Source of the DNA: a plasmid
Direction: 5' to 3' (one strand)
Length of the DNA stretch: 64,000 nt
Sequence record: NZ_CP022071.1
Every line of letters begins with the position of its first letter. Within the stretch, counting starts at the first letter, position 1. Positions 50,367-54,209 of this stretch are shown here, one piece after another. Under the pieces are notes generated by a model. It was not told where the DNA came from. It did not search any database and saw nothing but the letters and a program-made list of their open reading frames with translations. Both the position numbers and the translations under genes were made by a program.

Positions 50367-50432
50367 AAGTGCTGGATGGTGCGGTCAGAATCCCGAAAAT
50401 CCCGGTGATTGAAGCACAATTGCATCGTGAAA

Positions 50433-51466
50433 TTACTGGCACGTCACCTCCTGCTTACGGTACTCGAGGATAATGTCATTGTTACGGTCAGTCAGGTCGT
50501 AGCGGCTGCCCGCCAGGCTGCGCAGGGCGCCCACGGCATCCGGATCCAGCTGGCTGCGCAGGCTGTCACCAATGCGGTAACTCGCTTCTGCCCCGAAGCG
50601 GGTGTCATGCTCCCCGGCCTTGCCGGCGCGCTGCTCCGCGCTGAGCTTCAGCAGCGGCACCGGAGTCCAGCTGACCCCGGCGGTCAGGGCGTGCGGGTTC
50701 TTCTGCCGCTCATCCTTCCCGAACAGGCCCACTTCATTTCCGTAATACTGCTCATACACCATCTTCGCCCCGAGCTGCGGGTACGACGGCAGGTAGCCTT
50801 CAGCACGCAGGTCCCAGCCGCTGGCCGGACGCTCTTCGTAGTCCTCCACATCCGGGGAGGTTTTCCAGCCGGTCAGGCCGACATAGGCGTTGGCGGAAAG
50901 CTTAAGGAAGTCGCGCCAGTATTCTCCGCCGAAGCCGGCGCGGGCGTGGTCGCGGGAGAGGTCATAGTCGAGGAAGATGTTCGCCCCGAGCATGTCAGAC
51001 GGCCGGAAGTGACGGTAACCATCCCGGCGGCGGCCTGACCGTCCGGATGGCTGGCGAGGAAGCTGCCGGCCTGTGAGGCCATGCCGGCCATCTGCTGCGC
51101 CTGCGCGTCCTCATTTTCCCGGTCAGCAGCAAACGGACCGCGGGCGTCATGGCGGTTATTGTCACCTTTCCCGCCGGTCAGCGGGACCGCCGGCACGTCA
51201 AGCTCGTCGCCGGCCTGCAGGTGGTCAAAGCCGCGGGCGAAAGTGCGGAGCCCGTTCAGTTTTTTCAGCTGTGGGACGGTCAGGCCGTGCGCCTGCGCCA
51301 CCGTCTCCCCCTTTTTCAGGGTATAAGGCACGGTCCGGATCCCGGCGAGGGCGGCATCCCGGTCGGCAGAGAACGGGCTCTGCCCGATCCGGGACGCGAT
51401 GTCCGCCCGGGCCGTCATGGCCGGCGTGAGCGTTAAAACCAGCGGTGTGGTGGCCTGCATCCACAA
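50433..51466 (-). pseudogene. Decayed inverse autotransporter (intimin/invasin family): LysM region plus part of the beta-barrel, frameshifted and truncated
   Basis: ORF 50873..51466 carries a LysM motif (YTLKKGETVAQAHGLTVPQLKKLNGL). ORF 50433..50993, in another frame, carries beta-domain motifs (...DRNNDIILEYRKQ). The passenger domain is absent. Confidence 0.6.
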
Positions 51467-51515
51467 TGTGGCCCAGGTACACCCCGTCCACGCCGGGGAG
51501 TACAGGAGGATAATT

Positions 51516-52198
51516 TCATAGTGTCATGTCCGTATAATGAGAACGGTGTGTTACCGGAAGGTGCACGGGGTGATGTGCAGAAACGTTGTGGCTACCGGCG
51601 CCGGTCGTCCGGCTGCTGAAAAAGGGCGGCGACCCCGGGTGGAGCATCATGCTGTAGTGCGCCGCAGGGTCAGGCAGGCCGATCACCGGATTGGCCAGCA
51701 GCTCCAGGCGGTTCAGCGCGCTGCGGCGATGGCCGTAAAAGGTTTTGGGGCTGATGCCGAGCCGGGCGCCGTGCGCGCGGAGAGGCCGGCGAGCGTGGCA
51801 CACAGCGCCTGTCGCTCGCGCAGGGAGAGACTCTCCGTCGTCGCCTGCCGCCAGCCCCGCGCACGGCGCAGCCAGCTGCTGACCGCGGCCTTCAGCTGAG
51901 TCGCGGAGGCGGTGCGCGGCAGCAGGCAGTCCGGCCTGAGACCGAGGGTGTTCAGGAAGACAGCCTGTCCTCCTGAGCCCAGCAGCGCCAGTTTCAGGGA
52001 CAGTGATGTCCTGGCGTGATGGCAGGCCGGGACCAGCGATGCCAGCATGCCGGGAGAGGCCGCCAGCAGCACATGGCTGCCTGCCGGCGGCGCGGTCTGT
52101 AACCACCGGGCAACACTCATGTTCACGGGGTCCAGATGTGCGAGCAGGCGCGTCAGCGCCAGGCGGGTAAACTGACAGTCACTGACGATAATCAGCAT
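51516..52198 (-). pseudogene. LuxR/GerE-family regulator with a frameshift inside the HTH
   Basis: Frame A (51713..52198) runs to LSLRERQALCATLAGLS. Frame B (51516..52106) continues with ARLGISPKTFYGHRRSALNRLEL. GC content here is ~70%. Confidence 0.5.
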
Positions 52199-52680
52199 GA
52201 TGCCTCCCGGACCGGGCAGGCTGCCTGCCAGGCGGCTAGTTTTGCCGTATCACCGCCGGCCGGGCGGGACAGCAGCCAGTGCGCCATCTGGCGGTCATAC
52301 TGCCGGTCACTCACCTTCCCGCCCGGCCGGTCTGTCCGCTGCCGGCGGATGGTGTCCGGGCGGGATTCCACTGCCCGGATACGCACCACGAGCTGGGCGC
52401 GGCCTCCCCGCACGGGGTGCAGGCGGGAATCAAAGCAAATGTCGTCGTCATTGTGACGGTTACAGATGTAATTGAGGATACCGCTGGCACGGCGGGGCTC
52501 AATGCTGAACGCCTCGCTGACGTCATCGCGGGTAAACTCCCGGCCCAGAAACAGCCCCCACCAGGCCACGGCCCGGTACAGGGACAGGGTGCCCAGATGG
52601 CGGATGCCCGGGGGCATGTAAAACCCTTCATGGTTGCTCTGCCTGCCGGCAACGGTCCGGAATAACAACGGCTGGTTCAT
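52192..52680 (-). CDS. CaiF/GrlA-family transcriptional regulator-like protein
   Basis: MNQPLLFRTVAGRQ...LSLYRAVAWWGLFLGREFTRDDVSEAFSIEPRRASGILNYICNR fits the CaiF/GrlA HTH pattern (PLY..A.W...E.W..R.DI..AF.I..RRAS.I..YI). Confidence 0.45.
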   Translation of the reverse strand: MNQPLLFRTVAGRQSNHEGFYMPPGIRHLGTLSLYRAVAWWGLFLGREFTRDDVSEAFSIEPRRASGILNYICNRHNDDDICFDSRLHPVRGGRAQLVVRIRAVESRPDTIRRQRTDRPGGKVSDRQYDRQMAHWLLSRPAGGDTAKLAAWQAACPVREASC

Positions 52681-52719
52681 AGAAATGACTCCTGTGCGCA
52701 TAACTTAACCAAAGGCCGG

Positions 52720-53418
52720 CTGGCTTTTTTGCGTCAGCCGGAAATGAAACAGCCCGAAGGGCATCGGGGCGCCGCAGTGCCAGCCCTGCAGGTAATCGCC
52801 CCCCGCGTCCCGCAGGCGCGCCGCCTGCGCCGGGGTCTCGATACCTTCGGCAATGACCCGGGCCCCCTAGCACCGGGCCAGACTGACGGTGCGCGCAATC
52901 ATCCGATCAGCCACCGTGCTGGCGGGACCGGCATGACCGGTGCCGAAGTCGTCCACGGCGAACCGCAGCCCCCCGGCGGCAAGCTGGCGGAATACCGCCG
53001 CCTGAGGAAAGGCGCGGATATCTTCCCGCTCGGTGATTTCAAAGACGGGGGTCATGCCGGCCTGCTCCAGCCGGATGCTGAGGGCCAGCAGGTGCGGACG
53101 GAAAAGCGGCGTCATAACCAGGCTCAGGCTGAGATTCAGCGTCATCATCAGCCTGCGGCCGGCACTGCGGGCAAGGTCCTGCCCGTCCCCGCAGACCTCG
53201 TCGGCCAGTCCGCGCAGCAGCGCTCCGCCGAGGCCGGTGGCTTCAATGGCGGGAATAAAGTTCCCGGCGCTCAGCAGGCCCTTCTGCGGATGCAGCCAGC
53301 GGGCCAGCATTTCGCAGCCCACCACCTCCCCTCCTGTGGCGCAGACAATGGGCTGATAAAACGGCGTAAACTCCCGGTTCCGGATGGCCTGTTGCAGGCG
53401 AAAGGCTGAAAAATGCAT
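52720..53418 (-). pseudogene. EAL-domain (c-di-GMP phosphodiesterase) gene remnant with multiple frameshifts
   Basis: Motifs FYQPIV, EITE and DDFGTG are in ORF 52867..53418. VIAEGIETPAQAARLRDAG and DYLQGWHCGAPMPF lie in two other frames downstream. Confidence 0.55.
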
Positions 53419-53426
53419 ACACGTCT

Positions 53427-54209
53427 CTATGAACCTCCTTTGAGCATAGCCACTGCATCAGCACCCGGCATCTGAAACTGCACCCGGTGTCGTGCGGCAA
53501 CATCAAGCGCAAACACTTTCGTGTACACTTCCGTCGAGCTCACCGATTTGTGTCCCATCAGCGCCTGCAGCACCTTCAGCGGTATGCCGGCGTACAGCAT
53601 GTGCATCGCATAGGAGTGGCGGAATGTATGGGGTGTCACCGGGACTGAGAACGTCACGTCGTCAGCCGCTGCGGCCTCAACCGCCTCCCCAATCCAGGTA
53701 CGGACCGTCCGGTCGGTGATCTCCCAGAGGCGCGCCTTTTCCGTTCTGCCGGTACGTCTGTTACGACGCTCCAGCGGGATTTTCAGCGTGGCCACCATCA
53801 TCTGCAGTTCGCTGACATACTGGTTATCAGAAAGCGGCACCAGGCGGTGGGGCTGGCTGCCGGACGGCATCCGTCCTGCCGTTCTGGCCGCCTTTTCCGC
53901 CCGCTGTTTCAGAGTGGCCAGCTGCACAAACGGATAAGGTGGTGCCAGCGAAAAGTCTCCCCGTGTCAGGGCCAGCGCCTCGTTAATCCGTGCGCCGGTA
54001 TTCCATAGAGTGGCCAGCAGCATCCTGCGATGCAGATCAGGGACGTAGTGGAGCAGGGCACTTACCTCCGGTGCCAGCAGATATTTCGGGTAGTCGTCAT
54101 GCTGCATTGCCATCTGGCGCAGTGCGAGGGCCGCCGGGTAATCAATGGCCACCGGCAGCAGGGCGGACGCTGCCTGCGTACAGACAGCAGGTAACGGTGG
54201 CTGACTCAT
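53427..54209 (-). CDS. FimB/FimE-like tyrosine site-specific recombinase
   Basis: 260 aa with a C-terminal catalytic region HTFRHSYAMHMLYAGIPLKVLQALMGHKSVSSTEVYTKV (R..H..Y). Confidence 0.8.
   Translation of the reverse strand: MSQPPLPAVCTQAASALLPVAIDYPAALALRQMAMQHDDYPKYLLAPEVSALLHYVPDLHRRMLLATLWNTGARINEALALTRGDFSLAPPYPFVQLATLKQRAEKAARTAGRMPSGSQPHRLVPLSDNQYVSELQMMVATLKIPLERRNRRTGRTEKARLWEITDRTVRTWIGEAVEAAAADDVTFSVPVTPHTFRHSYAMHMLYAGIPLKVLQALMGHKSVSSTEVYTKVFALDVAARHRVQFQMPGADAVAMLKGGS

Follow-up and report, generated by a model that had tools for sequence, protein, structure and literature searches.

A GC-rich block of decayed genes behind the ccd-rsdB operon of a pSLT-type Salmonella virulence plasmid: the probable remnant of an acquired adhesin cassette

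What are the largely broken, GC-rich genes that lie between the spv genes and the ccdAB genes of the Salmonella virulence plasmid, and does any of them still do something? We addressed this question in a 64,000-nucleotide stretch of plasmid record NZ_CP022071.1 (hereafter the window), whose replicon is a pSLT-type Salmonella enterica spv virulence plasmid, with plus-strand open reading frames (ORFs) for SpvB, SpvC and SpvD at 45.7-49.4 kb and minus-strand ORFs for CcdB and CcdA at 55.05-55.58 kb. The block in question (~50,440-53,430) consists of four tightly packed minus-strand genes, encoding an EAL-domain protein, a CaiF/GrlA-like regulator, a LuxR-like regulator and an inverse autotransporter, and it follows directly upon the genes ccdA-ccdB-PSLT029-PSLT030-rsdB, the last of which encodes a tyrosine recombinase (Table 1). 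We conclude that the block is very probably what is left, now non-functional, of a GC-rich adhesin cassette acquired by horizontal transfer, in which the regulators were orphaned by the dead adhesin. A first-pass annotation, made from the sequence alone, had also seen a decayed, acquired adhesin-plus-regulator unit here, and both the distinct composition of the block and the intact colinear cassettes that we found elsewhere bear this out.

Table 1. Features of the block and its surroundings (window coordinates)
Feature	Coordinates	Strand	Basis or remark
Inverse-autotransporter (intimin/invasin-type) pseudogene	50433..51519	-	IAT_beta E 2.7e-75
LuxR/GerE-type helix-turn-helix (HTH) regulator pseudogene	51516..52198	-	PSLT 'membrane protein' ORF plus shifted HTH frame
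CaiF/GrlA-family regulator ORF, intact	52192..52701	-	169 aa; 162 aa if start 52,680
EAL-domain gene (PSLT032 plus downstream 150-nt fragment)	52705..53418	-	Pfam EAL E 5.4e-30
rsdB (PSLT031), ResD-family tyrosine recombinase, backbone	53427..54209	-	F-plasmid ResD likeness
PSLT030, backbone operon head	54,244-54,765	-	Annotation of identical plasmids
PSLT029, backbone operon head	54,762-55,052	-	Annotation of identical plasmids
ccdB, backbone operon head	55,054-55,359	-	Annotation of identical plasmids
ccdA, backbone operon head	55,361-55,579	-	Annotation of identical plasmids
Conserved inverted repeat AGATCCG, 14 nt, CGGATCT	56085..56113		Three-way alignment of window, F and Gaminara plasmid
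IS200-type tnpA (Y1 transposase) pseudogene	49535..49959, end approximate	-	Pfam Y1_Tnp E 1e-24; 87-aa ORF at 49,535-49,798
IS605-type tnpB/orfB 5' remnant, cut at adhesin remnant	50016..50440	+	Pfam HTH_OrfB_IS605 E 6e-18

The composition of the block differs from that of both the spv genes and the plasmid backbone. Its GC fraction is 0.60-0.71 over 50,400-53,400 (0.64-0.69 per gene, with 0.77-0.82 at third codon positions), compared to 0.31-0.49 in the left flank and 0.526 in the whole window. The first-pass annotation had noted this rise and had set it against flanks of 45-52% GC, a figure that fails on the right, where GC remains at 0.58-0.62 through rsdB, PSLT030, PSLT029 and ccdB, to ~55,400. 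Since ResD-family genes are also GC-rich (0.55-0.60) in low-GC E. coli plasmids, the high GC on the right is backbone composition rather than island, and we rejected the recombinase as part of a GC-rich island. The distribution of the sequence was examined with a 3.8-kb query, which matched a sequenced S. enterica plasmid at 100% identity and 225 plasmid records at ≥99% identity; 221 records, all from Salmonella, hold at least 80% of the query, and another ~2500 plasmids, from E. coli, Klebsiella and other hosts, match in the recombinase part alone, at ~80% nucleotide identity. The homology of rsdB among other plasmids ends at its stop codon, with the ATG of the EAL gene 8 nt further on, and the ccdAB-PSLT029-PSLT030-rsdB module is found without the block in another Salmonella plasmid (L014). 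The opposite end is the point at which a truncated tnpB meets the truncated adhesin (~50,440-50,445), just as the first-pass annotation had placed it, at a remnant of an IS200/IS605 element.

The genes themselves have long had family names. RefSeq labels them as an inverse autotransporter beta domain, a LysM protein, a 'membrane protein', a CaiF/GrlA regulator, two EAL fragments and a site-specific integrase, and the Pfam matches in the region are IAT_beta, EAL, CaiF_GrlA, Phage_integrase, Y1_Tnp and HTH_OrfB_IS605, with LysM just below threshold. In the literature on PSLT030-033, on EAL proteins or cyclic di-GMP (c-di-GMP) in connection with pSLT, and on inverse autotransporters accompanied by CaiF/GrlA or EAL proteins, we found the block treated in a single paper only (Lobato-Marquez et al. 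2016, PMC5065971), and nowhere a description of it as a decayed adhesin cassette, nor of an intact cassette.

The adhesin gene had been thought to be split between a LysM frame and a beta-barrel frame. The two frames are indeed there, and the damage is larger. With the adhesin of an intact relative (L015, at least 1675 residues) as tblastn query, residues 20-175 (63% identity) and residues 248-439 (83%) match in different frames, such that there is no in-frame signal peptide-LysM-barrel product. Template residues 176-247 (72 barrel codons) are deleted, out of frame, at ~51,019-51,023, and homology stops at residue 439 (window 50,445), the end of the barrel, where the passenger is gone and the tnpB remnant abuts. 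The beta-barrel is accordingly incomplete, with the IAT_beta match limited to positions 108-279 of the 279 in the profile, and the LysM match reaches 19.3 bits, compared to the Pfam cut-off of 20.9. The ATG at 51,519, which overlaps the stop codon of the LuxR-like gene (ATGA), does not share the frame of the stretch that matches the template N-terminus. The Dublin plasmid (L002) has the same adhesin lesions as the window, and the same 186-aa barrel fragment is called in another spv plasmid (L028). The passenger and most of tnpB were probably lost together, in a single deletion.

The EAL gene is less broken than the first-pass annotation supposed. In place of multiple frameshifts we found a single continuous frame from 53,418 to 52,705 (aligned to P0037, 51% identity over 256 residues), broken by one TAG at 52,867-52,869, a codon that reads CAG in Dublin, L026 and L028. 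The motifs EML, EITERE, DDFGTG, AEGIET and QG have survived; a stretch of 17-22 residues with FIKID in it is gone from all Salmonella spv copies examined, and is kept in every homologue from outside Salmonella (among them L005 and P0037-P0050) and in PdeL/YahA. The lysine of the EAL (I/L)K(I/L)D motif is essential for catalysis in RocR, TBD1265 and YahA. The truncated 183-aa product is encoded on at least 1000 contigs, and open 237-aa forms are rare, all with Gln at codon 184. A 227-aa EAL coding sequence (CDS) in Dublin was considered as an intact form and was rejected, as alignment to L005 showed a 1-bp deletion that shifts its C-terminus. As a separate observation, the 183-aa fragment (Q7DAP8_SALTY) carries the automatic name 'Anti-FlhC(2)FlhD(4) factor YdiV' in UniRef, which nothing in our analysis supports.

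The LuxR-like gene carries the frameshift inside its HTH that had been suspected: the window has a 1-bp deletion at 51,777, where L028 has an extra G and an open 227-aa ORF. The shifted frame shows the motif LGISPKTFY..R..AL.RL, and intact homologues are present in L003 (176 aa, 56% identity) and L015 (210 aa). The GerE profile has no Pfam match in the window fragments, reaches 23.0 bits in L003 (cut-off 23.5) and is weak in L015 and L018. A common allele of this gene (the P0178 cluster, 198 aa; 288 contigs, the longest of 94,070 nt) bears an in-frame deletion of 29 codons, by which the front half of the HTH region is lost and one continuous ORF regained; this is an independent lesion, found in pSLT-sized plasmids.

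The CaiF/GrlA-like ORF, which overlaps the LuxR-like gene by 7 nt, is intact, and its family assignment in the first-pass annotation stands: it scores above the cut-off of CaiF_GrlA (PF07180; 36.6 bits against 25, E 5.6e-9) and is matched by the GrlA structure 4KT5 (E 3.5e-5). Its relatives outside Salmonella are few (41-64% identity) and have conserved synteny. No GrlR-like partner appeared among the called genes or Pfam hits at any locus, although no search directed at GrlR was made.

We compared the lesions across lineages of spv plasmids. The window has the TAG in the EAL gene, an open CaiF-like gene, the 1-bp deletion in the LuxR-like gene and a 1-bp deletion in tnpA at 49,889. Dublin has CAG in place of the TAG but the 1-bp deletion that shifts the C-terminus, an open CaiF-like gene and an intact tnpA, and its LuxR-like gene has both a 23-bp deletion and a 634-bp deletion that fuses the gene to the LysM region. 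In L026, the EAL gene is open, the CaiF-like gene is stopped by a change of TGG to TAG, the LuxR-like gene has the 23-bp deletion, and there are further deletions of 10 bp in the barrel fragment and of 11 bp in PSLT029. In L028, by contrast to the window, the EAL gene (237 aa), the CaiF-like gene (162 aa) and the LuxR-like gene (227 aa) are all open and tnpA is intact, and the adhesin is dead here too; over 6.2 kb the two sequences differ at six sites only, and three of these differences inactivate genes in the window (the TAG and two 1-bp deletions). Because the same sequence recurs in 225 records and each lineage has different lesions, the lesions are real and lineage-specific, not assembly errors. 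Moreover, the adhesin lesions are common to the lineages compared in detail. Thus, the simplest history suggested by these alignments is that the adhesin was lost first and that the orphaned regulators decayed later, independently in the serovar lineages.

Intact relatives of the block exist in other Enterobacterales. In L015/L016, genes for LuxR1 (217 aa), EAL (259 aa), CaiF (165 aa), GerE (210 aa) and an adhesin of at least 1675 aa are colinear, and the CaiF and GerE genes overlap by 7 nt, exactly as the corresponding genes do in the window. In L005/L006 and L017 (metagenome and Logan contigs), a LuxR-like gene (222 aa) is followed in one direction by genes for EAL (248 aa), CaiF/GrlA (162-163 aa) and a complete inverse autotransporter (823-831 aa). 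The regulator set is present in L018 and in Citrobacter amalonaticus (L011), and a CaiF and LuxR-like pair in L003. A diverged colinear copy (67-80% nucleotide identity), partly decayed and with a frameshifted CaiF-like gene, lies on an IncF plasmid of S. enterica subsp. salamae (L020). The LuxR-like/EAL(/CaiF) set also stands beside classical autotransporters (L023/L024) and a chaperone-usher fimbrial operon (L021/L022). Since the regulators recur beside different adhesins, the regulators are the conserved core and the adhesin varies. A scan of genome contigs with one protein gave matches in Citrobacter amalonaticus and Franconibacter helveticus only. A nucleotide search of complete E. coli genomes with the cassette matched only the generic barrel of inverse autotransporters, beside whose genes the regulator genes were not detected. 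In Intestinirhabdus alba (L007-L009, ~12.8-20.5 kb), two tandem Microviridae-like gene sets adjoin the CaiF-like gene on the chromosome; these encode a Phage_F capsid, a Chlamy_scaf scaffold and a REP_ORF2-G2P replication protein, and look like a gokushovirus-type prophage.

In L015 (0.57-0.67) and L020 (0.56-0.65) the GC of the cassette is high, which is not the case in L005 or L003; it exceeds that of the surroundings in L020, and GC climbs along the short contig L015. Thus, the GC-richness may belong to the cassette itself rather than to a high-GC donor genome. Among solved structures, the EAL protein of intact cassettes is nearest to PdeL/YahA (E 3e-43), and it keeps all catalytic motifs, which argues that it is probably an active c-di-GMP phosphodiesterase.

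From these comparisons we propose the following history. The ancestor would have held genes for a first LuxR-like regulator, a PdeL-like EAL protein, a GrlA/StdE-like regulator, a second regulator of LuxR/GerE type and a large, LysM-bearing inverse autotransporter. Of the upstream, first LuxR-like gene there is no trace in the window. In an ancestor of the spv plasmids, a copy of the cassette, cut just upstream of the EAL start, would have been joined to the 3' end of rsdB and so have become the tail of the ccdAB-PSLT029-PSLT030-rsdB maintenance operon. The adhesin would have been the first to die, by the 72-codon deletion and by a truncation that took all of the sequence past the barrel, where the gene now meets the truncated IS605 tnpB; the EAL domain would also have lost its catalytic-lysine segment. 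The regulators would then have decayed separately in each serovar lineage, in that of the window by the change of CAG to TAG and the 1-bp deletion in the LuxR-like gene, and the CaiF/GrlA-like ORF presumably just happens to remain open here. Since the adhesin, the catalytic EAL and the LuxR-type partner are all lost, the regulatory logic is broken in the window.

The position of the block bears on its expression. With every gene on the minus strand, the block is, in the direction of transcription, downstream of the recombinase gene, beginning 8 nt after the rsdB stop codon, and not upstream of it as the first-pass annotation had it. No promoter-like site was found on the minus (coding) strand inside the block, and any expression thus relies on read-through from the maintenance operon. 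By reverse transcription PCR (RT-PCR), ccdAB, PSLT029, PSLT030, rsdB and PSLT032 (the EAL fragment) form one transcript under the control of CcdAB (Lobato-Marquez et al. 2016, PMC5065971).

Several points weigh against reading the block as a simple dead remnant of this ancestry. No close donor was found among 5.8 billion proteins: the nearest non-spv copies share 46-64% identity with the regulators and 63-83% with the adhesin, and the locus that matches best differs from gene to gene. Homology searches, from which an ancestral locus and a donor taxon had been expected, yielded intact colinear cassettes (L015, L005, L017) but no donor, and the ancestral gene set is therefore deduced from a family of relatives and not from an immediate forebear. 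In most spv plasmids the CaiF/GrlA-like ORF is open, and with only about five independent lesions and Salmonella copies that are ~99-100% identical, its neutral survival is not separable from selection. The RT-PCR transcript was shown as far as PSLT032, short of the CaiF-like gene (PMC5065971). A 5' frameshift of 1 bp in the adhesin, near 51,481, is probable, judged by similarity to the L015 N-terminus, its sole basis. Finally, reversion could have produced the rare open forms, which would then not be ancestral; parsimony opposes this, since three lineages share CAG.

There are also readings in which part of the locus still works. The broader of them takes the intact relatives as an undescribed, mobile, GC-rich cassette of Enterobacterales that serves as a c-di-GMP-gated switch between adhesin and motility or virulence, with a core of LuxR-like, PdeL-like EAL and GrlA/StdE-like proteins, often a second LuxR-type regulator, and inverse autotransporters, classical autotransporters or chaperone-usher fimbriae as adhesins; the CaiF/GrlA-like gene that survives on spv plasmids, driven by the ccd toxin-antitoxin promoter, might then still act on Salmonella gene expression. 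We regard this as speculative and, on balance, rather unlikely.

In the narrower reading, which we consider quite unlikely, the locus is partly live: the CaiF/GrlA-like regulator, perhaps together with the 183-aa EAL fragment, which would act as the degenerate EAL protein YdiV does, has been retained, is expressed from the tail of the ccd-rsdB operon and regulates chromosomal or plasmid genes such as those for flagella, SPI-1 (Salmonella pathogenicity island 1) or tra. It would account for the ORF being open in the window, Dublin and L028 and for protein clusters that hold hundreds of its sequences; transcription of the ccd-rsdB operon reaches at least the EAL fragment (PMC5065971), and where GrlA-family regulators are encoded next to adhesins, their regulons are pleiotropic and take in tra genes of pSLT (PMC6173445). 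Yet the same gene has a premature stop in L026, sporadic truncated or frameshifted variants (P0004, P0009, P0011) and a frameshift in the salamae copy; by our estimate there is a ~0.4 chance that no lesion would hit a 510-nt gene in a 3-kb block under neutrality; a terminator-like hairpin (near 52,753-52,768) stands just upstream of the gene, with no promoter-like site; and curing of pSLT left the rdar (red, dry and rough) biofilm morphotype unchanged (PMC4143323). We therefore continue to favor the dead remnant.

The remaining functional reading, put forward in the first-pass annotation, was a phase-variable adhesin island switched by the adjacent recombinase, taken to be FimB/FimE-like, acting on nearby inverted repeats. 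A tyrosine recombinase gene does adjoin the block. Nonetheless, RsdB is 88% identical over 252 residues (E 8e-165) to ResD, the F-plasmid integrase encoded right after ccdB, and it gave 20 bits against a cut-off of 221 with the NCBIfam model for a 'tyrosine-type DNA invertase' (NF007370), the weakest of its 10 matches, compared to 70-80 bits for Xer-like models. By sequence relationship and ccd-linked gene order (ccdA-ccdB-PSLT029-PSLT030-rsdB here, ccdA-ccdB-integrase in F), the recombinase is shown to be of ResD type, the predicted multimer resolvase of the plasmid, and its gene belongs to the backbone, outside the acquired block. For the resolvase role, Lobato-Marquez et al. (PMC5065971) cite Krause and Guiney 1991, on the rsd/crs multimer resolution system of pSDL2, a virulence plasmid of S. 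Dublin. Nor was a target for an invertase apparent. The gap of 8 nt between the rsdB stop codon and the EAL ATG leaves no room for an invertible element, and the scan for repeats resembling a fim switch returned only imperfect (71-94%), chance-level inverted pairs, mostly kilobases apart and inside GC-rich coding sequence; in 49.3-56.4 kb no inverted pair frames a short intergenic element, although repeats of 9 bp are not statistically excludable. Chromosomal or unplaced intact copies of the cassette have no recombinase gene adjoining. On this evidence a phase-variation island is very improbable.

We did observe ResD-family integrase genes, whose products are 49-50% identical to RsdB, 2-3 kb from the cassette and beside a Rep gene in two relatives (L020, 5,218-5,958; L021, 4,710-5,351). 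This proximity could be taken in favor of a switch; it indicates that a plasmid resolvase and the cassette are neighbors in at least two independent arrangements.

An artefact, whether through errors of assembly or sequencing in GC-rich homopolymers or through ORFs that merely reflect the composition of native DNA, is next to impossible even though two lesions fall in G/C runs, given 225 records at ≥99% identity, a truncated EAL gene on at least 1000 contigs, large deletions common to serovars, lineage-specific lesions that are mutually exclusive and reproducible, and strong homologues of every gene in conserved order elsewhere.

If RsdB acts as a resolvase, its site is likely to lie upstream of ccdA, outside the block. 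A segment there (~55,900-56,130) is conserved with F and with a Gaminara plasmid, in blocks that include GTACACTTCCGGAAAGTC, and we consider its inverted-repeat region (Table 1) a candidate cis resolution site or a remnant of an origin. The 17-bp direct repeats reportedly found in crs were not detected by repeat and tandem-repeat scans of 49.3-56.4 kb. The two small genes between ccdB and rsdB, PSLT029 (96 aa) and PSLT030 (173 aa), are co-transcribed with ccdB and rsdB (PMC5065971); neither is matched by a Pfam or NCBIfam model. Both are present in other Salmonella plasmids, and PSLT029 is found in part beside ccdB in Klebsiella and Enterobacter plasmids.

On the other side of the block, the IS200/IS605 element of the window is not intact. 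Its tnpA lacks one base relative to L028, at the position given above, and is intact (141 aa) in Dublin and L028; its tnpB is truncated at ~50,440, with a TnpB-like reading that runs on to that point in another frame. The tnpB remnant carries a 9-bp repeat, TTCCGTAAA, which encodes FRK and appears to be a small variable-number repeat, judged without alignment: ORF translations and CDS lengths give two copies in the window (50,016-50,366; CDS of 351 nt) and three in Dublin (L002, 5,608-5,967; 360 nt). An Rfam scan of the window found only the FinP antisense RNA and the traJ 5' untranslated region (14,076-14,182), which confirms an F-like transfer region elsewhere in the window.

The finding is one of real but ordinary gene decay on a very well-studied plasmid. 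The locus was already annotated with family names and one fragment of it has appeared in the literature, such that the reconstruction of the ancestral cassette is only modestly new and the stakes for the window are small. What it corrects is the reading of a long-annotated stretch of pSLT, whose ORFs have gone by the names 'membrane protein', 'YdiV' and 'EAL domain protein'. It also offers an example of ordered decay, in which the structural gene went first and the regulators were then lost independently in each serovar, and the lineage-specific lesions could serve to mark lineages of spv plasmids. The modest interest that remains lies in the still-open GrlA-like ORF and in the intact cassette, which appears uncharacterized, stands beside three classes of adhesin and should be tractable for studying adhesin control by c-di-GMP and by regulators of GrlA/StdE type.

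Each part of the locus can be compared to a known system. As in the ccdAB-resD region of F, the recombinase gene of the window follows ccdAB, and the two plasmids share a homologous segment upstream of ccdA. Unlike F, the window has a further pair of small genes (PSLT029 and PSLT030) between ccdB and the recombinase gene, and its operon extends into the acquired EAL gene (PMC5065971). The adhesin remnant shares with the LysM-bearing inverse autotransporters (IatC/IatD, YeeJ, invasin and intimin) a LysM region and an IAT beta-barrel, and its best NCBIfam match is IatC (278.6 bits, far under the cut-off of 2400 bits); in contrast to these proteins, it lacks 72 barrel codons and the entire passenger. 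Roles in biofilm formation and adhesion have been published for IatB, IatC and IatD (PMC6714894).

The regulators, in turn, recall three systems. In E. coli, PdeL (YahA) is both a phosphodiesterase and a transcription factor, with a LuxR-type HTH and an EAL domain, and the cassette likewise pairs a gene for a LuxR-type C-terminal HTH with the EAL gene directly downstream. PdeL is one fused protein, whereas the cassette has two separate genes; the EAL protein of the Salmonella spv plasmids, unlike PdeL, is without the catalytic-lysine segment, and in the window it is also cut by a stop. With GrlA of the locus of enterocyte effacement (LEE) of enteropathogenic and enterohemorrhagic E. coli (EPEC/EHEC), the CaiF/GrlA-like ORF shares its Pfam family and a direct match to 4KT5 over the HTH, but the likeness is confined to ~60 residues and the ORF has no link to type III secretion. 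By way of Ler, GrlA affects the expression of intimin, itself an inverse autotransporter. A third parallel, one of gene order, is that with StdE and StdF, encoded at the 3' end of the std fimbrial operon of Salmonella, where a GrlA/CaiF-family regulator directly followed by a second HTH regulator likewise stands beside an adhesin locus. Unlike StdE and StdF, which come after the fimbrial genes, the cassette regulators precede the inverse autotransporter and are accompanied by an EAL protein and a further LuxR-like gene, and in the window the LuxR-like partner is a pseudogene. StdE and StdF switch on their own adhesin operon, repress motility and SPI-1, lower invasion and raise pSLT transfer (PMC3264584; PMC6173445). 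By analogy with these regulators and with GrlA, the c-di-GMP-linked regulators of an intact cassette would switch on the adjacent adhesin and probably cross-regulate motility.

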